Of a DNA stretch of 64,000 nt, positions 1 to 9,115 are shown piece after piece (position 1 is the stretch's first letter; the number at the start of each line of letters is the position of its first letter). The stretch comes from a phage. The position numbers and the translations under genes were made by a program. Below the pieces are notes generated by a model. The model worked only from the letters and a program-made list of their open reading frames with translations. It made no database searches and was not told the origin of the DNA. Location of the stretch: the sequence record NC_101835.1; one strand, given 5' to 3'.

Positions 1-46
1 GGTGGTGCAGTTCTGATGTATAACTATCTTGAAAAAGGAGACAGCA

Positions 47-232
47 ATGGTAAAAAATAAATCTTTAGAGCAGGCTGAAAACCTTCTCCACGAGCTGGTA
101 AAGGAGTGGAAAGTTGAATACTCAGATTTTAATGCACGAGAGGGTGAAGATTATTGGCCTACGGAGCGCTCAGAGGGCGAATGGTATCAAGATTTTATAG
201 AGTGGTTATATCAGACGTGCGATGAGGGGTGA
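47..232 (+). CDS. hypothetical small protein
   Basis: ORF with ATG 7 nt after AAGGAG; track TTG start at 29 less likely. Confidence 0.5.
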   Translation: MVKNKSLEQAENLLHELVKEWKVEYSDFNAREGEDYWPTERSEGEWYQDFIEWLYQTCDEG

Positions 233-234
233 CG

Positions 235-699
235 ATGTTTGTTAAATATGTAAAAACGTGCCTCAACAGTCTTGGCAGAGAGCATTGGTACACCTTGCTT
301 GAAAAAGGGGAAATTTTAACAAAATCTGGAAAGATAACTTTGATACCTCTTGATAGTAAAGGTAAAGACCCGTCACGACTTGTTATAGATGATTACGTTA
401 CAGGTGTGACGTTCGAGGTCTCTGTGGAGAGGTTAATACGCAGAGCTGGCGGCCCTTATGACCGAAGAGAGTATGTTTTCGATTCCGTTACAGAGATGGG
501 GGAGCATCCGTCTTTAATGTTCAGGATGGTAATCAGAGATATGAGGTCATCTATAGATAGGATCGTAAAGGACATTAAGGAACCTTTTAGAGTAAAAGTT
601 AAGAAGTTTTTCGATTCTAAGATTAACATACTCGCCGTTGCACTAGGTGTAGTTCAACTTCTGTTAATTTTGCACTATTTTGAACTGCTATTTAAGTAG
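235..699 (+). CDS. hypothetical protein with C-terminal hydrophobic segment
   Basis: ORF overlapping previous stop; GAGGGG upstream of ATG; C-terminal ILAVALGVVQLLLILHYF membrane-anchor-like. Confidence 0.5.
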   Translation: MFVKYVKTCLNSLGREHWYTLLEKGEILTKSGKITLIPLDSKGKDPSRLVIDDYVTGVTFEVSVERLIRRAGGPYDRREYVFDSVTEMGEHPSLMFRMVIRDMRSSIDRIVKDIKEPFRVKVKKFFDSKINILAVALGVVQLLLILHYFELLFK

Positions 700-761
700 T
701 AGTTGAGATATGGCACAAAGGATGTGCCATAGTGAAATAAACTAAGAAAGAGGTAGAGAGA

Positions 762-1109
762 ATGCCAAAGATTAAAACGTTATTACTGTGGGTAGCTGTT
801 TTAGCTTTTATAGGGTACTGGACTTGGGAAACTGAATTAAAAGATATCGGATATACCAGTCTTGAGAGCAAGGCGTGCATTGGCATAACCGATGCGTTCA
901 GGCAAAATGCTATGGATCACGAATGTGTTGATGCAGATATAGATGAGAAACTGTCTAAGGACAAAGATTTTTACCATGGGCATGCTTTACTTGATAGTGG
1001 TGACACTGTAGAGTTCTGGTCGTGGTTTCGTGAAGATGGAACAATAAAAACAGCAGTAAAGATCTCTAACAAAGAGTTAATGCTGTTGCAGCAAAAGGAG
1101 GCTCAATGA
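762..1109 (+). CDS. hypothetical protein, N-terminal signal/TM segment
   Basis: AGAGGTAGAGAGA RBS before ATG; N-terminal LLLWVAVLAFIGYWTW hydrophobic. Confidence 0.55.
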   Translation: MPKIKTLLLWVAVLAFIGYWTWETELKDIGYTSLESKACIGITDAFRQNAMDHECVDADIDEKLSKDKDFYHGHALLDSGDTVEFWSWFREDGTIKTAVKISNKELMLLQQKEAQ

Positions 1110-1393
1110 TCTGGATATCCTATGCTGATGGCACCATGCTGTATACTGCAGGTACCAGATATGAAGTTCAGGAGAACGATAAAAAATTTATCGTAAAAAC
1201 ATTTGACAAGGACGACAACCTTTTGCTAGAATTGACTTACAAAGTTGGAGAGGTATCCAATATCCAGTTGGATTGTGGTCATAAAGATAATCCACTCAAA
1301 AAACCTGGAGTAGGTAAGGCTTCAGAAGAACGTCTGTCTCGTATTGCAGAAAGCGTTTCTCCCCAAAAATCTAAGAAGAGGACTAGAAAATGA
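1106..1393 (+). CDS. hypothetical protein
   Basis: AAGGAGG RBS; start overlaps upstream stop (ATGA). Confidence 0.5.
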   Translation: MIWISYADGTMLYTAGTRYEVQENDKKFIVKTFDKDDNLLLELTYKVGEVSNIQLDCGHKDNPLKKPGVGKASEERLSRIAESVSPQKSKKRTRK

Positions 1394-1584
1394 AAAACTT
1401 ACGTTTTAACACTTATTACTACAACACATTGAATGATTTGTATTATATTGTTCGAAGTAAAAGTCCTGAAACAGTCCTATTCTGCCGCGAACCTTTCAAA
1501 GGGGAGGAAGTAGAGTCTGAGATGAATGTTAGCCAGATCACCTCTTTGTTGCTCTCAGGCGCAATGGAAGAAGCAATATTCTAA
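1390..1584 (+). CDS. hypothetical protein
   Basis: ATGA-coupled ORF, AGAGGA upstream. Confidence 0.45.
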   Translation: MKNLRFNTYYYNTLNDLYYIVRSKSPETVLFCREPFKGEEVESEMNVSQITSLLLSGAMEEAIF

Positions 1585-1602
1585 ACCAGGCAGGAGGGTT
1601 TT

Positions 1603-1791
1603 ATGAAGCACTATTGCCTGTCTGGTAGAATGGGTGCAGATTGTGATTGGGTTTTCTTAAAACTTGTCAGCATTCGAGAGTTCATCCCAGAGGAAGAGCA
1701 AGAAAGCGAGCTGATGTCATGGATCAACCATTACGGTAACACTTTTCGGCATGTTAAGGTAGAAGAGTTGCCAAGCGAGGCTGAATTATGA
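1603..1791 (+). CDS. hypothetical protein
   Basis: GGAGGG RBS before ATG. Confidence 0.45.
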   Translation: MKHYCLSGRMGADCDWVFLKLVSIREFIPEEEQESELMSWINHYGNTFRHVKVEELPSEAEL

Positions 1792-2084
1792 AACTTTTTG
1801 AGTGGTTTAAAAAGTTTAAATATAAAGCTGTAGCCATCGTGCCGTGGTCCATTCAGTGGGTTGATGAAGGTGGTCTACCGATACCTGGTGACAAAGATAC
1901 TGGGTACTGGATTATGATGGAGAACGGGTTTGGAAAGCGAAAGTATACGTGCACAAACTCTACTCGATCTGCACTTAATAGAGTGCCTGGTTACAAACTT
2001 ATGGTTGTGTGGAAAATGTCAGGCGTGCCTCCAGCCAATGCTCAATTTCTTACTGACAATCCGACCACGGTAGAGGGAGATTGA
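1788..2084 (+). CDS. hypothetical protein
   Basis: ATGA overlap with upstream stop. Confidence 0.5.
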   Translation: MKLFEWFKKFKYKAVAIVPWSIQWVDEGGLPIPGDKDTGYWIMMENGFGKRKYTCTNSTRSALNRVPGYKLMVVWKMSGVPPANAQFLTDNPTTVEGD

Positions 2085-2086
2085 TA

Positions 2087-2368
2087 ATGAAAAAGATTAA
2101 CAGTAGTGAAGTAGAGTTTAAACTTGTCGGAAAAGGCACTTACTGGGAAGTTCGTCAAAAGGTATATTTGTTCGGTCTTATTCCCTACTGGTCTAAATTC
2201 TACTGGGGAGCTAACGAGTTGGGAAGATACGCCACCAAATCAATGGCACTTATTGGTATAGCAGAGTACATTGCAGCCCGAGACAGGGTTGGAACCACTT
2301 ATTACTACACTGCTGACGATATTCGTAACAGTGTTTACGTCCCACAACCACCTGATGGAGACCGTTGA
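2087..2368 (+). CDS. hypothetical protein
   Basis: ATG after GAGGGAGA; track TTG start 2081 less likely. Confidence 0.5.
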   Translation: MKKINSSEVEFKLVGKGTYWEVRQKVYLFGLIPYWSKFYWGANELGRYATKSMALIGIAEYIAARDRVGTTYYYTADDIRNSVYVPQPPDGDR

Positions 2369-2592
2369 TGAAAGTTAAAGTTTTAGATTCAAGCTTCTAT
2401 ATTGGTCAGGAGCCTTTAGTAGGAAAAGTGTTTACTGCTGTCCCTAACGAAGATTACCCTGACCTTTTAAAAATAAAAGGAGCAGATCTTATTGCCGCTG
2501 GTGCATCTCAAGAATGCTTTGACAGTCAGTGGACCTATAACTTTGCCCTAGGTGAGGATGTAGAGGTAGTGGAGGACGATCATGAAGGTTAA
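2368..2592 (+). CDS. small acidic protein, paralog family 1 (copy A)
   Basis: MKVKVLDSSFYIGQ..GKVFTAV..ADLIAAGAS..GEDVEVVE; clear paralog of 2582-2836. Confidence 0.55.
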   Translation: MKVKVLDSSFYIGQEPLVGKVFTAVPNEDYPDLLKIKGADLIAAGASQECFDSQWTYNFALGEDVEVVEDDHEG

Positions 2593-2836
2593 AATTCTTG
2601 ATTCTAACGTCTACTTGGGACAATCCTTCCTGAATGGAAAGGTCGTTCCTGCGGTATACTTTGAAGGGTTGCCGTGGGATGATCCTGTGCGGCAACATCA
2701 CAGTTATGTAGGCCACAACGTGGTGTTTATCTTGGGATCAGACCTGATCACCGCTGGTGCACCTGAATATTATTTCGGGGAAGAGTCCTACTATGCCTTT
2801 GGGGTAGGGTCAGATGCAGATATTGTAGAGCTGTGA
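2582..2836 (+). CDS. small acidic protein, paralog family 1 (copy B)
   Basis: MKVKILDSNVYLGQ..GKVVPAV..SDLITAGAP..GSDADIVE; GGAGGA RBS. Confidence 0.55.
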   Translation: MKVKILDSNVYLGQSFLNGKVVPAVYFEGLPWDDPVRQHHSYVGHNVVFILGSDLITAGAPEYYFGEESYYAFGVGSDADIVEL

Positions 2837-2848
2837 TGGGTAACCGTT

Positions 2849-3247
2849 GTGAAAAATAAACTGTTTAAAGTTACAATGAAAATTCGCGGGGCTTGGAGCG
2901 TAAAGCAAGGGCGTATTCCAGAATTTGAGAAAGACTTCTACGTAGTCTCCACCTCGGAGGAGGCTGCATGCTGGCAGGCTGGCTATGCCTATGCAAGAAC
3001 CTGGTACGAAGGATACCAGACTGGGGGCTATGACGGAGAAATTATCAGCAAGGGTGTAGAAGAAATTAATGTGTTGACAAGTGAAAAAGTTTTTGTTATA
3101 GTGCATCCAGATTCCAGAGTGAAGCATTACTGGAATGCCAGAACAAAAACTTGGACACCGTTTGCAGATTCTGCTACGCCACTTTTAAACCAGAAAGCTC
3201 TTGACTCTGCCCCAAGTTATGGGGTTGTTGAAGAAAAGCTAAACTGA
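2849..3247 (+). CDS. hypothetical protein, paralog family 2 (copy A)
   Basis: GTG start inferred; C-terminal HPDSRVKHYWNARTKTWTP matches HPHSNIAYYWDVLNNEWTP of 5059-5454. Confidence 0.5.
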   Translation: MKNKLFKVTMKIRGAWSVKQGRIPEFEKDFYVVSTSEEAACWQAGYAYARTWYEGYQTGGYDGEIISKGVEEINVLTSEKVFVIVHPDSRVKHYWNARTKTWTPFADSATPLLNQKALDSAPSYGVVEEKLN

Positions 3248-3264
3248 AACAGTGAGGTGTCACC

Positions 3265-3555
3265 ATGATGGATTTAATTCTAAATATTGATAACGCAGGA
3301 GAGTTTAAAGACGATGGTGTAACAAGCATGGACAAACCCTGCTCTGCTAAGGTTGACTCAAAATGGACCTACAAGTTTGACGGAGAGATCTTCGCAAATG
3401 ATGAGAAGGTTGTAGATGCTGCAGCCATTTTAAACGCTCTAGGGTACGACCCTGTGAATTCTTTGATCAAGGATCCTGTTGAGTTTGCAGAGTATGTTCG
3501 AAAAATGGCAGATCTTGCTGTGGATATTTTAAAAACTATCGACAACAAGCTGTAA
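3265..3555 (+). CDS. hypothetical protein
   Basis: GTGAGGTG RBS before ATG. Confidence 0.5.
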   Translation: MMDLILNIDNAGEFKDDGVTSMDKPCSAKVDSKWTYKFDGEIFANDEKVVDAAAILNALGYDPVNSLIKDPVEFAEYVRKMADLAVDILKTIDNKL

Positions 3556-3561
3556 AAACTG

Positions 3562-3590
3562 TTGACACAACGCTTCAGATTTAGTATCAT
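3562..3590 (+). promoter_or_regulatory. sigma70-like promoter (TTGACA-N17-TATCAT)
   Basis: TTGACA at 3562-3567, 17-nt spacer, TATCAT at 3585-3590, about 50 nt upstream of hpf-like ATG. Confidence 0.45.
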
Positions 3591-3639
3591 TGTTTTCAAA
3601 GAGAGATAGTTATTCCCTCTTCCTTAAAAGGAACACGTT

Positions 3640-3960
3640 ATGCAAATTGAAATCACTGGCAACAATGTAGAAATCACAGAAGGTATGGTATCTTTTATTT
3701 CCCGCAAAATGTCCAAGCTGGAGCGTTTACATCCCTCTGTTAACTATGCACGTGTGAGTGTAAAAGTTGAAAATGATCACCAGGAAGTTATGGCGTTCAT
3801 TTTTGACAATTCTGGAAAAGAAGTTATTGCCAAGGCTAAAGGCAGTGATGCTTACGAGGCAACTGACCGTATGGTAGATGTTGCAGCACGTCAGCTGGCT
3901 AAATGCGGTGGAAAGAAAGGTAAGGGGAAAGGCAAAGTAAAGATTGACTTTGGAGAATGA
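3640..3960 (+). CDS. hpf: ribosome hibernation promoting factor / RaiA (S30AE) family homolog
   Basis: N-terminus MQIEITGNNVEITEGM.. recalls bacterial HPF MQLNITGNNVEITEAL..; KLE and ARQLAK segments; lysine-rich tail. Confidence 0.7.
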   Translation: MQIEITGNNVEITEGMVSFISRKMSKLERLHPSVNYARVSVKVENDHQEVMAFIFDNSGKEVIAKAKGSDAYEATDRMVDVAARQLAKCGGKKGKGKGKVKIDFGE

Positions 3961-4097
3961 GGTGCTACAATGGGTGTGATTAAGAAATTAGTCCCAAATG
4001 TAGAGATTGCATGCTTTGAAATTATGTTTGCAATCGCAGTTGTAGTTAATGTGTTAGGTTACGGCTATTAATATCAAATAATTGAGGAGACCTCTAA

Positions 4098-4367
4098 ATG
4101 AAAATTAAATTATTCCAAACTGAGCTGGCAGACAAAAATTGTGGACTGGTTGAAGGCATGATTGTTGAAGCACAACCAGTGGACTATATGAAGGTGGTTC
4201 GTGATGCCCTAGGTGAAGGTTTTGATCTGATGGAGCCAGCTCTGCGAGAAGATGTTATCGAGATGGCTAAAAAGCACACACCTGAAGGTTTGGTGGTGTT
4301 TGTTGCACCGGGTAACGGAGAAGAGTTGATTGTAACTCCTGATGTGTATGAGATTGTAGAGGAATAA
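4098..4367 (+). CDS. small acidic protein, paralog family 3
   Basis: GAGGAG RBS; MKIKLFQ.. ending ..TPDVYEIVEE; shared architecture with 5534-5791 and 6471-6758. Confidence 0.55.
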   Translation: MKIKLFQTELADKNCGLVEGMIVEAQPVDYMKVVRDALGEGFDLMEPALREDVIEMAKKHTPEGLVVFVAPGNGEELIVTPDVYEIVEE

Positions 4368-4458
4368 TCCTGCTTGGATTAGCATACTTCCTCGCTAAGG
4401 AAGATTTGTAATTATTTGTGGGAAAGGAGTCCCAATCTCTTACCAGAGGTGATACTAT

Positions 4459-4722
4459 ATGATTGTTTATTTTAAAACTTCAGGTGGATACCCTGATTCT
4501 CAAAGCTTGATCGGAAAAACGTGCACAGCATACTCACCTCTTGATGAGGAGGTAAGCGATATTTTACGAAATATGTATCGGATTGACCCCCAAGAAGCCT
4601 TTGATCAAAACCTTGTATTTGTCAAGGGCTCAGATATGAAGTCTTTGGGAGCATTCCCTGAAGCAGATGATGATGCCGTTTATTCGTTCATGACTCCTTT
4701 TGAAGCTATGGTTGTTGGGTGA
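4459..4722 (+). CDS. small acidic protein, paralog family 1 (copy C)
   Basis: GAGGTG RBS; GKTCTAY / FVKGSDMKSLGAF resemble family 1. Confidence 0.5.
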   Translation: MIVYFKTSGGYPDSQSLIGKTCTAYSPLDEEVSDILRNMYRIDPQEAFDQNLVFVKGSDMKSLGAFPEADDDAVYSFMTPFEAMVVG

Positions 4723-4726
4723 TAAT

Positions 4727-5059
4727 ATGAAAGTACGCTTTATTGGTGAAACAATTCCTGTGCATCTCCGGTCGCCTGAGGATTCTGCAGATCTTGCATC
4801 TCAAAAGGCGAGAGGTTATGATAAGAAAGTAACCTCAACCGATGTAGTGCTTGAGGCTACTAGTCTACCTGACCCTGCTGCATTCTTTAATCATTATGGG
4901 TACTATTTCAGCAATCTGATGAATATCGGTGAGCTTGTGTTTATTAGTGGTGGAGAAATTGTTAGCAAGCTTGGCGGCGATCCGGATATCTTTCATGAAA
5001 CCTGTCCTTTTGCATTTGTGGTAGGTTCAGATGTGGAAGTTATTGAGGAGGTGCGGTAA
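4727..5059 (+). CDS. small acidic protein, paralog family 1 (copy D)
   Basis: ATG at 4727 (track TTG 4700 less likely); C-terminal FVVGSDVEVIEE matches family 1. Confidence 0.5.
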   Translation: MKVRFIGETIPVHLRSPEDSADLASQKARGYDKKVTSTDVVLEATSLPDPAAFFNHYGYYFSNLMNIGELVFISGGEIVSKLGGDPDIFHETCPFAFVVGSDVEVIEEVR

Positions 5060-5454
5060 TGGTAAGCCTATACCGTGTTGAGTATAGCTCAGATACTGTA
5101 TACAACGTAAGAAGCAAAGATCGCAGCGACAGAGTGCAAGAAATGTATGTTCTTGCCGACAGTCCGTTATCTGCAGCGTTCAAGGCAGGGGCTCTTGCAT
5201 CTCGTTGGAAATTTGAAGGTGGATCTTTCTATGAAGAAACCCTTGAAGATTCTGTTGTTATTTCTTCTGTAGAGGTTTCAGATGACTACGAAGGGAAAAA
5301 GTTCGTAATGCGGCACCCACACAGCAACATTGCGTACTACTGGGATGTTCTGAACAACGAGTGGACCCCAGATCTTCAGAAGGCTACTGTGCTAACACCG
5401 TTTTTGGCAGATAAGTTCCCACCAGAAGGTAATTTATCCGCACTGTTTCAGTAA
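5059..5454 (+). CDS. hypothetical protein, paralog family 2 (copy B)
   Basis: GGAGGTG RBS; paralog of 2849-3247. Confidence 0.55.
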   Translation: MVSLYRVEYSSDTVYNVRSKDRSDRVQEMYVLADSPLSAAFKAGALASRWKFEGGSFYEETLEDSVVISSVEVSDDYEGKKFVMRHPHSNIAYYWDVLNNEWTPDLQKATVLTPFLADKFPPEGNLSALFQ

Positions 5455-5533
5455 TTTTCTTGCACACAGGTGTTGACAACGCCAACCCTGTGTGAAATAA
5501 TACCTTCATCTTAATAAGACAGGGGACCGATTG

Positions 5534-5791
5534 ATGAAGATTAAATTGAAAAACCTTGAAACGGCAGAGATTCAGGACGGTGTTGATTTCCGTTCTAAAG
5601 ATGGTGACATCTTAGAGGTAAATATTCCAACCTACGAGCTGATTAAAGGTTTTGGCAACGTTCCGGAAGAGGATATTACAGAAATTCTTATGATGTTGAT
5701 TCTTGACGGAACTGTGTTTGTAGGTGAAGGTGAGAACGCTATTGCAATCCCAGGCCATTTTTATGAAGTAGTTGACGAAGAGGTGCTGTAA
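5534..5791 (+). CDS. small acidic protein, paralog family 3
   Basis: MKIKLKN..KDGDILEVNIPTYELIKG..HFYEVVDEEVL. Confidence 0.55.
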   Translation: MKIKLKNLETAEIQDGVDFRSKDGDILEVNIPTYELIKGFGNVPEEDITEILMMLILDGTVFVGEGENAIAIPGHFYEVVDEEVL

Positions 5792-6142
5792 ATGAAAGTA
5801 GAAATTACCGGTTTTGATGTGAATGTGGTTCCGGAAGATATTTTAGCTAAACTTCCAGAAGGTTTTGGTAACGGCGTTGTGGTGGATGCTGTTCCTCCTA
5901 CCAAAGACATTCTGCTGCAGTATGGTGTAGCAGAGGAAGATGTCGATAAAGTTCTTACAATGATGGCAATCGATCGTGTTGTCGTTGTTAAAGGTCTCGA
6001 TAATTTTGAGAGTGATCCCTTGATTATTCGTGGAGATGACTACAAAATCATCGATAATGAAGGCCAAGAGTTCTATGAACCTTGTGCAGAAGATATTCTT
6101 AACTTATTACTGGAAGCAGGTACCGAAGAGGAGGACGAATAA
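5792..6142 (+). CDS. small acidic protein
   Basis: ORF directly abutting upstream stop; acidic C-terminus EEEDE. Confidence 0.5.
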   Translation: MKVEITGFDVNVVPEDILAKLPEGFGNGVVVDAVPPTKDILLQYGVAEEDVDKVLTMMAIDRVVVVKGLDNFESDPLIIRGDDYKIIDNEGQEFYEPCAEDILNLLLEAGTEEEDE

Positions 6143-6471
6143 TGAAGATTGACCCGTTACTGAAGGCTCGTGCAGAAAAAGCGTACACCATTAAGCTGAC
6201 CAACCTGGTTCCTACTTGTCATCCAGATGTAGGTTGGCCTGAAGGTCTGGTAGAGGGGACTGTAACAGCTGCATACCTCCCTAACATCAAATACCTCATG
6301 GAAATCTTGGAGCTGGATGAGGAAACGGCAGAAGAGTTCCAGTTGGACATGAAACAAAGTGGGACTCTGGTTATTCACGGGTGGTACAATACTAGAGATG
6401 CAGAAGACCCTCTGGTAACTTCTAATCTGGCATATGAAATCTTAGGGCCTTTGAACCTGGAGGAAGACTAA
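6142..6471 (+). CDS. small acidic protein
   Basis: GAGGAGGA RBS; start overlaps upstream stop. Confidence 0.5.
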   Translation: MKIDPLLKARAEKAYTIKLTNLVPTCHPDVGWPEGLVEGTVTAAYLPNIKYLMEILELDEETAEEFQLDMKQSGTLVIHGWYNTRDAEDPLVTSNLAYEILGPLNLEED

Positions 6472-6758
6472 TGAAAGATCTGGTTAAGATTAAGATTAAA
6501 GATACCAATGGAGAACTCAGTCATTTTGGAATTAATGATGGTGACGAGCTGATCGCACACCTGCCTACCAAGGAGGTTGTAAGCAAAGCAGTTGCCGGAG
6601 AAGAAGCTGCAATGCAGGCTGCAGGTGTGGATGAAAACTATGTAGCTATGTGCATGTGCCGAGATCAGGTTGTTCTGTATAAAGCGTATCGACCAAACGG
6701 AGCCACGGAGTGGCTTGTATTCCGACCCGAAGGATATGAAATCTTAGAGGCACTATGA
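6471..6758 (+). CDS. small acidic protein, paralog family 3
   Basis: GGAGGAAGA RBS; NDGDELIAHLPTKEVV.. ending EGYEILEAL. Confidence 0.55.
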   Translation: MKDLVKIKIKDTNGELSHFGINDGDELIAHLPTKEVVSKAVAGEEAAMQAAGVDENYVAMCMCRDQVVLYKAYRPNGATEWLVFRPEGYEILEAL

Positions 6759-6847
6759 TAAATCTTGCCAAGGTTGCAACGGCACTGTTAGTTATTTGCT
6801 GGTCTGTAACCTTAACACTGTGTCTTGTATTTCAGTGAGGTGCTTGT

Positions 6848-7111
6848 ATGAACATCCTGATGTGGGTTATAGCAGTGGCGTTTGTTGCATGTTTTTGCTG
6901 CTGGGTTGCGGTGAGGATTTCTGTAGCTACCCTTCGGAAGTTGGGGTTCTCAGAATGGGATATTAATATCCTTTCTTTTCGCAATGAAACAATCTCAGCC
7001 GCCCTGCTTTGTAAGAAATTTAAGTGGGAACCTTGTGAGGTCATGAGCTATCTAAGAACAGGCGATATCCCTGAAAGATTTAAAAAAGTTCTTGACGGCA
7101 AGGATAAATGA
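6848..7111 (+). CDS. small membrane protein
   Basis: GTGAGGTG RBS; N-terminal MNILMWVIAVAFVACFCCWVAV hydrophobic. Confidence 0.5.
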   Translation: MNILMWVIAVAFVACFCCWVAVRISVATLRKLGFSEWDINILSFRNETISAALLCKKFKWEPCEVMSYLRTGDIPERFKKVLDGKDK

Positions 7112-7120
7112 CAGTATAGT
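7092..7120 (+). promoter_or_regulatory. sigma70-like promoter (TTGACG-N17-TATAGT)
   Basis: TTGACG 7092-7097, 17-nt spacer, TATAGT 7115-7120. Confidence 0.4.
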
Positions 7121-7139
7121 GACTAACAAGAGGTGAGGA

Positions 7140-7280
7140 ATGACTGATTTTACTGAAGCTTTAATGATGGCCTTGTCTGTTTTAGCGCTATCGGTGTGTT
7201 TTGGGGCGTTATTCACATCTCTGGTTAAAGTTTTACATACAGTATTATTACCCAAGGAGCGCAGTAATGACGAAGATTGA
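7140..7280 (+). CDS. small hydrophobic peptide (46 aa)
   Basis: ATG after AGAGGTGAGGA; below ORF-track size cut-off; hydrophobic core ALSVLALSVCFGALF. Confidence 0.3.
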   Translation: MTDFTEALMMALSVLALSVCFGALFTSLVKVLHTVLLPKERSNDED

Positions 7281-7518
7281 CTTAAATGCTGGAGACCATG
7301 TTGTTGTCAAATGCATCGGAGATTATCTTGGATTCACAATCGGCAATACTTACGAGGCGGTAGTGGCGAAGGTTTACCATGATAAAGTCCTCAGTCTTGT
7401 ATTTGACTGCGATGATGATGGGGATGACCGATACGTCTGTGAGGTGCTGGCACGAGACGATAGTGAAGACCAGAAATTCCTGGTTATTGAACTGAACGGT
7501 ATTTTTGTAGAACGTTAA
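7267..7518 (+). CDS. hypothetical acidic protein
   Basis: ATG after AAGGAGCG; track start 7201 less likely. Confidence 0.5.
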   Translation: MTKIDLNAGDHVVVKCIGDYLGFTIGNTYEAVVAKVYHDKVLSLVFDCDDDGDDRYVCEVLARDDSEDQKFLVIELNGIFVER

Positions 7519-7546
7519 TTTAAAACAACATAAGGAGACTCTTACT

Positions 7547-7852
7547 ATGGCTAAATCTAAAGTTGAACTGTTCACCTCTCTTCCTTCTGACACTGCAGAG
7601 CGTGATCGCCTTCGCAAAACAATCGAAGAACTGGTAGAACTCCAACTTCAGATTAAAGATCTGAAAGATGCCATTAAGGATATCATTCTCGTTGAGAAGC
7701 AGGATCACCTGTATTCTCCTAAATTCATCAAATCTCTGGTGGCTACCGAGTTCGATATTCGCTATGAGGCTGAAAAACGTCGCGCTAAAATCGAAGAAGA
7801 GGTTGAGCACATGTCTGAGGCAGACATTCTGTTCAAACGCTCTGTAGAATAA
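7547..7852 (+). CDS. hypothetical coiled-coil protein
   Basis: TAAGGAGA RBS; followed by strong intrinsic terminator. Confidence 0.6.
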   Translation: MAKSKVELFTSLPSDTAERDRLRKTIEELVELQLQIKDLKDAIKDIILVEKQDHLYSPKFIKSLVATEFDIRYEAEKRRAKIEEEVEHMSEADILFKRSVE

Positions 7853-7859
7853 TGACAAA

Positions 7860-7884
7860 GAGGGGGGCTTGGGCCCCTCTTTTT
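7860..7884 (+). terminator. rho-independent terminator
   Basis: GAGGGG/CCCCTC stem, 8-nt loop, then TTTTT. Confidence 0.65.
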
Positions 7885-7907
7885 ACTATCTATGAAGGAG
7901 ATTTGAG

Positions 7908-8234
7908 ATGGGTATACCGATTACTGTAAAAGAGCTAAATGAACGTGATGCAGGTGGTCTATGGCCTGCACGAAAAATCCGCTGCGTCTATATGAAAGAG
8001 AATCTTGAACATCTTGATCAACAGATAAAGGTCGGCGATATTTTCGAGGTCTTCTATTCCAATCGGCGCAACTGGGAAACCATTCAGCCTTCTGGTTTTG
8101 TTCTTGCCAAACTTGACACTGGAGAAGTGATTATCCCTGGGTTGGATATTGTCTTCGAAATTATCCAAGAGTGGGATCCGGATAAGATTAGATACGAAGA
8201 ATTATTCGGTAAAGGTATTATCAAACCTGTGTGA
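7908..8234 (+). CDS. hypothetical protein
   Basis: GAAGGAGA RBS. Confidence 0.55.
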   Translation: MGIPITVKELNERDAGGLWPARKIRCVYMKENLEHLDQQIKVGDIFEVFYSNRRNWETIQPSGFVLAKLDTGEVIIPGLDIVFEIIQEWDPDKIRYEELFGKGIIKPV

Positions 8235-8242
8235 GGTGGATT

Positions 8243-8542
8243 ATGTCTACAAAGGCGGCTAAATACTCCTATATGCCATCAACCTCTGCAGAGGTAGACT
8301 TTAGTTTCGATGTGTTTCCACTGTTTGAGGTGGTTCTGGCATACCCAACAATACTAACTACTCCTGAATCACTTGTGCCTGTTAAGTTGCAGAACGCTAT
8401 GCATTCTATGCACTACAACAATAAATGTAGGCACAGATGGTGTCAGGACGAGGAAAAAGATTTGGATAGTTTGAGAGATTTTGACAGTCACCTTTTGACA
8501 CCTTTTAGCTACTCCAACCTTGATAAGCCCTCATGGGTATAG
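8243..8542 (+). CDS. hypothetical protein
   Basis: ATG after GAGGTGG; track start 8231 less likely. Confidence 0.45.
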   Translation: MSTKAAKYSYMPSTSAEVDFSFDVFPLFEVVLAYPTILTTPESLVPVKLQNAMHSMHYNNKCRHRWCQDEEKDLDSLRDFDSHLLTPFSYSNLDKPSWV

Positions 8543-8566
8543 CAAAATATCAAATTTAAGACACCT

Positions 8567-8593
8567 AGGACGCTCTGTGGCGTCCTTTTCTTT
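8567..8593 (+). terminator. rho-independent terminator
   Basis: AGGACGC/GCGTCCT stem, loop TCTGTG, then TTTCTTT. Confidence 0.55.
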
Positions 8594-8755
8594 GTCTGGT
8601 GCACGATTGCATACCTTGGACAGATAATCTCGTTACAGAGCGTTTAAGAGCTTCCTACAAACAACTCCATATTTCGAGCGTAGCGAGAACGCACGTCCGT
8701 TTTGACCCAAATCACCATACGCTCGGATTTTAACCAAACCCTCGCGGCGTTTCTA

Positions 8756-8784
8756 TTGACACATTACAGCTCCAGTGATAATAT
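8756..8784 (+). promoter_or_regulatory. near-consensus sigma70 promoter (TTGACA-N17-TAATAT)
   Basis: TTGACA 8756-8761, 17-nt spacer, TAATAT 8779-8784. Confidence 0.55.
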
Positions 8785-8804
8785 CCACACATCATTTGGA
8801 GAAT

Positions 8805-8906
8805 ATGGAATACACTATGAGAACATTGTCCGAAGTTTTAGTGGTGATCCTGATGATCATTACGTCCATAGCGGCTGTTGCCGGAATACTCACAGGTGGA
8901 ACATGA
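8805..8906 (+). CDS. small hydrophobic peptide (about 30 aa)
   Basis: Just downstream of promoter; GGAG before ATG; ..LSEVLVVILMIITSIAAVAGIL..; stop overlaps next ATG (ATGA). Confidence 0.35.
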   Translation: MEYTMRTLSEVLVVILMIITSIAAVAGILTGGT

Positions 8907-9115
8907 TCAACACACATGCATCTGAAGAGACATCCGAAGGAGTGACCATATGTCCCTTGGATGAGCCAGTTAAAGAGGAAAACTTAGATTCTGAGGACTC
9001 TTCATCTTCGTCCCAGACAGATCCTGAGGCTGATGACCTGACGTGGGAGGACATCGTAGATATCTGGTTCTCTATTATGCCTGAGCACGAAGAGTTCAGA
9101 GGTGGTAGACTATGA
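8903..9115 (+). CDS. small acidic serine-rich protein
   Basis: ATG after AGGTGG, coupled to upstream peptide; replaces the longer track ORF 8702-9115 which reads through the promoter. Confidence 0.35.
   Translation: MINTHASEETSEGVTICPLDEPVKEENLDSEDSSSSSQTDPEADDLTWEDIVDIWFSIMPEHEEFRGGRL

Follow-up and report, generated by a model that had tools for sequence, protein, structure and literature searches.

An ancient array of small paralogous proteins in the early-looking region of a Vequintavirus genome

Organization of the small-gene array

The 64,000-nucleotide stretch of phage DNA analysed here (NC_101835.1, "the window") carries, between positions 2368 and 6758, eleven small genes that belong to three protein families, called A (four copies), B (two copies) and C (five copies). 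The array is ancient and vertically conserved and was built by repeated tandem duplication. Positions 2000 to 7000 are 99.5% identical to the corresponding region of the Escherichia phages Murica and SophiaRose. An identity of at least 90% is shared with 120 GenBank records, which belong almost exclusively to the genus Vequintavirus (rV5-like myoviruses). Every gene between 2368 and 6758 lies on the + strand, with the same coordinates as the RefSeq coding-sequence calls of Murica.

The genes of families A and B occur twice in the order A-A-B. The first cassette begins with A1 (2368-2592; 74 amino acids, isoelectric point (pI) 4.1), the minimal member of family A. It is followed, with an 11-nucleotide overlap, by A2 (2582-2836; 84 amino acids) and then by B1 (2849-3247; 132 amino acids, pI 7.8). 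The second cassette consists of A3 (4459-4722; 87 amino acids), a divergent family A member, A4 (4727-5059; 110 amino acids) and B2 (5059-5454; 131 amino acids, pI 4.7), the start of which overlaps the A4 stop codon by one nucleotide. A fifth family A gene, A5, encodes the 77-residue gp164 of Murica and is situated upstream of the window, about 1 kb from its start (Murica 91618-91851; positions 2261-2494 of locus L002).

Family C is represented by C1 (4098-4367; 89 amino acids, pI 4.3) and by a run of four genes downstream of the second cassette. These are C2 (5534-5791; 85 amino acids, pI 4.1), gene 5792 (5792-6142; 116 amino acids, with a net charge of -21 and an acidic C-terminal tail), gene 6142 (6142-6471; 109 amino acids) and C3 (6471-6758; 95 amino acids). 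No member of A, B or C was found among the other open reading frames (ORFs) of the window, which also contains no tRNA genes.

Two genes embedded in the array lie outside the three families. One, at 3265-3555, encodes a small acidic protein (phrog_12029) unrelated to A, B and C. The other, at 3640-3960, encodes a homolog of the ribosome hibernation factor HPF/RaiA, recognized by the Pfam model PF02482 with an E-value of 4e-15 and a score of 56.7 bits against a cut-off of 23.7. It is positioned between the two A-A-B cassettes.

Relationships and folds of the three families

In the initial annotation, which was made from the sequence alone, the genes at 2368, 2582, 4459 and 4727 had been grouped together, paralogous genes at 2849 and 5059 had been noted after each pair, and shuffled sequences had been proposed as the control. 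Smith-Waterman comparison of the 29 small ORFs at positions 1-9115, with 300 shuffles per pair, bears out both groupings. In family A, the z-scores are 24.7 for A1-A2, 9.8 for A2-A4, 8.1 for A1-A4, 6.1 for A2-A3 and 5.6 for A1-A3. The B1-B2 pair has a z-score of 17.5. In family C, the values are 7.6 for C2-5792, 5.7 for both C1-C2 and 5792-C3, 5.0 for C2-C3 and 4.9 for 5792-6142. Two pairs, A3-A4 (z = 2.9) and C1-C3 (z = 3.1), are weak when taken alone.

The same relationships emerge from leave-one-out hidden Markov models (HMMs), one per orthogroup, which were built from database orthologs to avoid circularity and were run against the 643 ORFs of a six-frame translation of the window. The best non-self match was a proposed paralog every time. 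The A1 model finds A2 at an E-value of 1e-22, A4 at 2e-5 and A3 at 9e-4; the B1 and B2 models find each other at about 1e-8; the C2 and 5792 models match reciprocally at about 5e-4, and the C3 model finds gene 5792 at 6e-4. A match of the B1 model to gene 3265 (E = 0.002) was rejected, because a natural fusion of B1 with that gene (P0030) was contained in the model.

Profile-profile comparison, for which orthologs of two divergent lineages were added to the alignments, gave E-values of 5e-20 for A5-A1, 3e-18 for A1-A2 and 2e-8 for A2-A4. A3 is connected to A1, A2 and A5 at about 1e-6 (8e-6 for A1-A3), so that A1, A2 and A5 form a tight subgroup from all members of which A3 is equidistant. B1 and B2 match at 4e-17. 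In family C, the values are 1e-8 for C1-C2, 7e-9 for C2-5792, 8e-6 for 5792-6142, 5e-6 for 5792-C3, 4e-6 for C1-C3 and 2e-4 for 6142-C3; in addition, the ortholog of gene 5792 in lineage X (see below) matches the 6142 orthogroup at 5e-4. The loose family that had been proposed for the genes at 4098, 5534 and 6471 is thus confirmed by the profiles, but has five members, genes 5792 and 6142 having been missed.

Such similarities might be the result of chance in non-coding ORFs, the shared motifs reflecting composition or a bias in the context of starts (MK(V/I)K) and stops (acidic C-termini). The region is rich in MKxK starts and acidic ends, and several pairs, such as A3-A4 and C1-C3, are weak by themselves. 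This explanation is already refuted, however, by the shuffle z-scores of up to 24.7, the top rank of the paralogs among 643 ORFs, the profile-profile E-values down to about 1e-20, ratios of nonsynonymous to synonymous substitution rates (dN/dS) far below 1, the conserved order of the orthologs in divergent lineages, and the confident AlphaFold2 model of family A; the probability left to it is negligible.

Some of the paralogy could have been read from public clustering. The HMM of phrog_5009 matches A1 (1.7e-38) and A2 (3.7e-32) over their full length, A3 weakly (1.2e-4) and A4 not at all, while that of phrog_7379 matches B1 (4e-74) and B2 (2e-66) over their full length; the A1/A2 and B1/B2 pairings are therefore already implicit there. 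PHROGs gives no function for either family, and it places A3, A4 and all five C proteins into separate single-gene families, leaving the cassettes unlinked. Tandem families of small early proteins are, moreover, common in large lytic phages. What is new is the complete list of family members, how family A folds, how old the duplications are and which deletion variants occur naturally. The result is useful, though not surprising. The evolutionary and structural description of the array is well supported.

Families A and C are probably distant branches of one superfamily, a relationship that the alignments favour without proving it. With the window paralogs alone, hhalign gives a non-significant E-value of 0.027, but with enriched whole-family alignments the value is 0.0024 and the match is colinear over the full length. 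The alignment pairs the MK(V/I)K motif of strand 1, the G-x-(V/I)-x-x-A motif of strand 2, the hydrophobic strand 3 and the (V/I)(V/L)E motif of the C-terminal strand. Its score of 21.2 exceeds those of all 200 column shuffles (maximum 14.9) and all 200 block shuffles (maximum 20.6). The closest pair of orthogroups is A5-C1, with a profile-profile E-value of 6e-4. Family B is unrelated to either A or C (hhalign E > 0.5).

The AlphaFold model of family A, with a mean predicted local distance difference test score (pLDDT) of 88, is an SH3-like small beta-barrel. In the predicted structure, five strands form a strongly bent antiparallel barrel with SH3 topology; strand 3 is followed by a conserved G-x-D-L-x-x-A-G-A helix, and strands 2 and 3 are separated by a variable insertion. 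It is by this insertion that A2, A3 and A4 differ from A1: it forms a loop in A2, is probably helical in A3, judging from the sequence, and is longest in A4. An 87-residue protein of Vequintavirus CM1 in BFVD, 26% identical in sequence, matches the A1 model with a template modelling (TM) score of 0.81; it is probably the A3 ortholog. The resemblance to the SH3-like class (PsaE, KOW, SH3, Tudor and the integrase C-terminal domain) is at the level of the fold and does not amount to family membership. The sequence identity is only 4-25%, there is no Pfam match, and the A proteins possess, besides the insertion between strands 2 and 3, a short additional helix (G-x-D-L-x-x-A-G-A) and, after strand 3, a loop of 12 residues. 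The combination that defines Sm/LSm/Hfq proteins, an N-terminal helix with five strands, the Sm1 and Sm2 motifs and recognition by the LSM Pfam models, is not found in family A, nor is there a sequence match to the KOW motif model (PF00467).

The family B proteins are about 130 residues long and have a beta-meander with an invariant HPxS...W...W motif. The B2 model (pLDDT 80.7) has an alpha+beta fold with only weak structural matches, to ribosomal protein eL20/LX and to PurS. These matches span 52-89 of the 131 residues, at most about two thirds of the model, and no sequence similarity was detected in PDB, Pfam or NCBIfam. The C-terminal YYW..WTP sequence was considered as a WW domain, the criterion being the spacing W-x20-22-W-x2-P together with a hit to the Pfam model of this domain. 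This assignment was rejected, as there is no Pfam match, the N-W and W-P spacings are too short and the first tryptophan is absent. Sequence searches of Pfam, NCBIfam and PDB with all families gave nothing above noise and no match to a catalytic family; in a Pfam scan of ten of the proteins no family was found, the models of KOW (PF00467), LSM, Ocr and ArdA all remaining unmatched.

Age of the duplications and natural variants

The array is confined almost entirely to the relatives of rV5. Word-indexed searches of 5.8 billion proteins returned only Vequintavirus-like sequences (25 clusters for family A, 6 for B and 53 for C), tblastn against GenBank phages gave about 117 Vequintavirus records for A2 and B1, and IMG/VR contains three loci only. 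Temperate mEp021-like coliphages carry single-gene homologs of A5 with 42-51% identity. In mEp021, the homolog gp40 (HMM E-value 7e-20) is situated among small genes between a Q-like regulator and the lysis genes. It is well supported that the array is an accessory, rV5-lineage-specific feature with occasional single copies elsewhere.

An exhaustive HMMER search of 1.84 billion representatives with the B profile yielded eight matches only. These include two new, genuine B homologs, P0085 and P0086, which share 41% identity with B2 and 39% with B1, respectively; three others (P0088-P0090) were rejected as repeat-protein artefacts. The contigs of P0085 and P0086 define two sister lineages, X and Y, both uncultured. 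Lineage X (L007, a 124-kb contig) keeps the order A1, A2, HPF, C1, A3, A4, B2, C2, 5792, 6142, C3. Its orthologs are unambiguously one-to-one and 29-66% identical, and B1 is absent. Lineage Y (L010, a 139-kb contig) retains B1 and four C genes of the array, together with A5. Since each paralog has its own ortholog in X or Y, the duplications predate the splits of these lineages and were not followed by concerted evolution. At the DNA level, no repeat was found between paralogs besides a 33-nucleotide stretch of A1 and A2 on the + strand (2479-2511 and 2735-2767, 79% identical), which comprises the GxDLIxAGA codons.

The initial annotation had interpreted the two A-A-B sets as a duplicated three-gene cassette. 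The repeated gene order and, in part, the affinity of A2 for A4 suggest that the three-gene unit was indeed duplicated as a whole. A clean duplication of this kind is not proven, however, because A1 and A2 are nearest to each other and A1 is not nearest to A3. The A copies may alternatively have originated by separate duplications of A genes, or have been altered by old gene conversion.

All eleven genes have dN/dS values of 0.04-0.15 (Nei-Gojobori method, against three Vequintavirus genomes). Constraint is strongest on B1 and B2 (0.04-0.05). A2 is present as a divergent allele, with a nucleotide identity of 76-79%, and its dN/dS is still only about 0.15. These are real genes under purifying selection and not fast-diversifying ones. 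The proteins had been described initially as diversified, which in the sense of an arms race is contradicted by these values and by the one-to-one orthologs that every paralog except B1 has in lineage X.

Part of the array is missing from some natural genomes. The BASEL phage Bas59 (EduardKellenberger) lacks window positions 1-3161 owing to a 3.7-kb deletion. With them, A1, A2 and some 104 codons of B1 are lost, so that only the second cassette and the C run are retained. As Bas59, the host of which is listed as E. coli K-12, is a viable isolate, the first cassette is dispensable for a phage isolated on this strain. The sequences flanking the deletion junction (L003 5590-6031 and 6017-12099) overlap by 15 bp. 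The deletion joins an upstream gene to the final 33 codons of B1, and this fusion gene bears the annotation "putative glycosidase". In a second variant, found in complete-length 133-kb contigs, A1 and A2 are replaced by a single hybrid gene of 70 codons (P0014). The hybrid is the product of an exact 256-bp deletion between the 33-nucleotide repeats, showing that A1 and A2 underwent unequal homologous recombination, with the repeat as the crossover site. Bas59 and the genomes with the A1/A2 hybrid are thus natural knock-outs that are already at hand.

Lineage X has an inserted PF27050 (Phage_P22_Y8K6) gene between B2 and C2 (L007 6467-6763). The position that B1 has in Vequintavirus is occupied there by another small gene family (L007 4068-4358), which by eye resembles L010 5343-5642. 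In lineage Y, an IS605 OrfB/TnpB-like gene (PF01385, PF07282) lies within the early small-gene region (L010 9532-10644). A 657-bp ENA contig encodes a chimeric 98-residue protein (P0082) consisting of an N-terminal PF24132 domain and the C-terminal half of the C protein encoded at 6142-6471.

Expression and possible functions

The region looks early, as had been proposed initially. Near-consensus sigma-70 promoters, agreeing with the consensus at 10-11 of 12 positions, are predicted between genes on the + strand, at 3562-3590 (11 of 12; upstream of the HPF gene), 3944-3971, 5473-5501 (11 of 12, with an extended -10 element; upstream of the C2-to-C3 run) and 7092-7120, and PhagePromoter predicts the same four sites in the Gotham record. 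In the rV5 genome paper, this region belongs to a transcription unit of genes 82-163 that includes replication and nucleotide-metabolism genes; the paralogs are not mentioned (PMC3606486). In the literature searched, neither a description of these paralogs nor a transcriptome of a Vequintavirus was found. At A1/A2, A4/B2, C2/5792, 5792/6142 and 6142/C3, the stop codon of one gene overlaps or adjoins the start codon of the next, an arrangement consistent with translational coupling, and short gaps separate A2 from B1 and A3 from A4.

These proteins may plausibly have a general role in host takeover or anti-defence. We infer, with about an even chance of being right, that the array supplies early, non-enzymatic binding modules, each paralog having a target of its own. 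The array would be transcribed early by the host sigma-70 RNA polymerase, with translation coupled within the A1-A2 and A4-B2 blocks and along the C2-to-C3 run. The products would act stoichiometrically, each paralog having retained a separate target in the host or the phage, for the most part a basic protein. The modules would tune the physiology of the host during takeover and be conditionally dispensable. Certain observations weigh against this proposal. The association of A with B is not obligatory, as lineage X has A1-A2 without B1 and lineage Y has B1 without a recognizable upstream A gene. Proteins that directly oppose host defences are not usually under very strong purifying selection without diversification among orthologs. 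Furthermore, the invariant histidine and serine of family B (H86 and S89 of HPxS) could be catalytic, which would contradict a purely binding role.

The acidity of the proteins had led to the suggestion that they are DNA mimics. Such anti-defence factors would imitate DNA with their acidic surfaces and tie up restriction enzymes or other defence proteins that bind DNA. The A and C proteins are indeed acidic (pI 4.05-4.8, net charge -6 to -21), this acidity is kept in orthologs that are only 29-66% identical (pI 4.05-4.86), and the region looks early. B1, however, is not acidic (pI 7.8), and 18 of the 29 small ORFs at positions 1-9115 have a pI below 5 (median 4.74), compared with a median of about 7 for the ORFs of at least 150 codons in the whole window. 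Acidity is therefore a property of the whole region and not of these families alone; most of the unrelated small ORFs nearby are acidic as well. The array proteins resemble Ocr (T7 gp0.3) and ArdA in being small, acidic and probably early-expressed phage or plasmid-type proteins, but have no sequence match to either and a lower charge density. Aspartate and glutamate make up 13-25% of the residues (13-22% in most members), and the conserved columns are mostly hydrophobic or glycine, with no acidic array. An SH3-like barrel such as that predicted for family A is found neither in Ocr, which consists entirely of helices, nor in ArdA, an elongated alpha/beta protein. The fold alone nevertheless leaves mimicry possible, because small beta-rich acidic DNA mimics exist, among them Ugi, phi29 p56 and T7 Gp2. 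The dN/dS values of 0.04-0.15 carry no signature of an arms race. Vequintavirinae were found in the BASEL study to be "exceptionally susceptible" to restriction-modification systems and seem to be without effective protection of any kind (PMC8594841), leaving DNA mimicry or anti-restriction unsupported. The explanation is attractive but improbable, and the DNA-mimic label can be removed from these genes.

It is also unlikely, if slightly less so, that the array is directed at the ribosome or RNA, with KOW/L24/LSm-type barrels (A and C), the eL20/LX-like B proteins and HPF together remodelling host translation or mRNA stability. In favour of this possibility, a bona fide HPF/RaiA gene is situated within the array and is retained at the same place in lineage X, where it is 65% identical. 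An analogy is offered by phage T4, in which an early protein family with an LSm-like fold (GoF/MotB.1/Frd.2) is linked to mRNA stability (PMC12152347). As in the Vequintavirus set, several small proteins made early by a large lytic coliphage have an SH3/Sm-type barrel, weak or absent sequence similarity and a largely unknown function, and were recognized mainly by means of AlphaFold (PMC12152347). No sequence relationship was detected between the two sets, however, and the Vequintavirus proteins differ in being arranged in tandem cassettes, strongly acidic and present in at least 10 copies per genome. The predicted structures contribute matches at the level of the fold only, KOW/L24-like for A and eL20-like for B, and no KOW, LSm or ribosomal Pfam family is matched. 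Direct RNA binding is not readily expected of acidic proteins with a pI of about 4, and lineage Y has B and C genes with no HPF noted in the stretch examined.

A more far-reaching version of the binding-module proposal is that A and C make up one expanded superfamily of at least 10 acidic SH3-like barrels per genome and form a coordinated toolkit with B and HPF, each paralog neutralizing or redirecting a different basic host protein, for example one of the ribosome, one of the nucleoid or an effector of defence. This is speculative, with only a small chance of being correct. If true, it would mean a new class of modular phage adaptors for host takeover or anti-defence, with single copies elsewhere, such as mEp021 gp40, and possibly in T4-like and T1-like phages, as hinted by fold-level matches in BFVD. 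Large lytic phages spend many early genes on small proteins of unknown function. In rV5, eleven adjacent genes and one upstream collapse into two or three ancient families, providing a starting set for functional screens in a genus that is widely used in the biocontrol of E. coli and in therapy.

Downstream of the array, two more small acidic ORFs on the + strand (7267-7518 and 7908-8234) look beta-rich by eye, and neither matches the A, B or C profiles. Among the close matches to positions 2000-7000 are 18 GenBank records of the MG0656xx series that are labelled "Campylobacter phage" (e.g. C12, C14 and A12a). Those listed are 98-99.5% identical to E. coli Vequintavirus genomes, and the host label looks doubtful, possibly the result of contamination or mislabelling.

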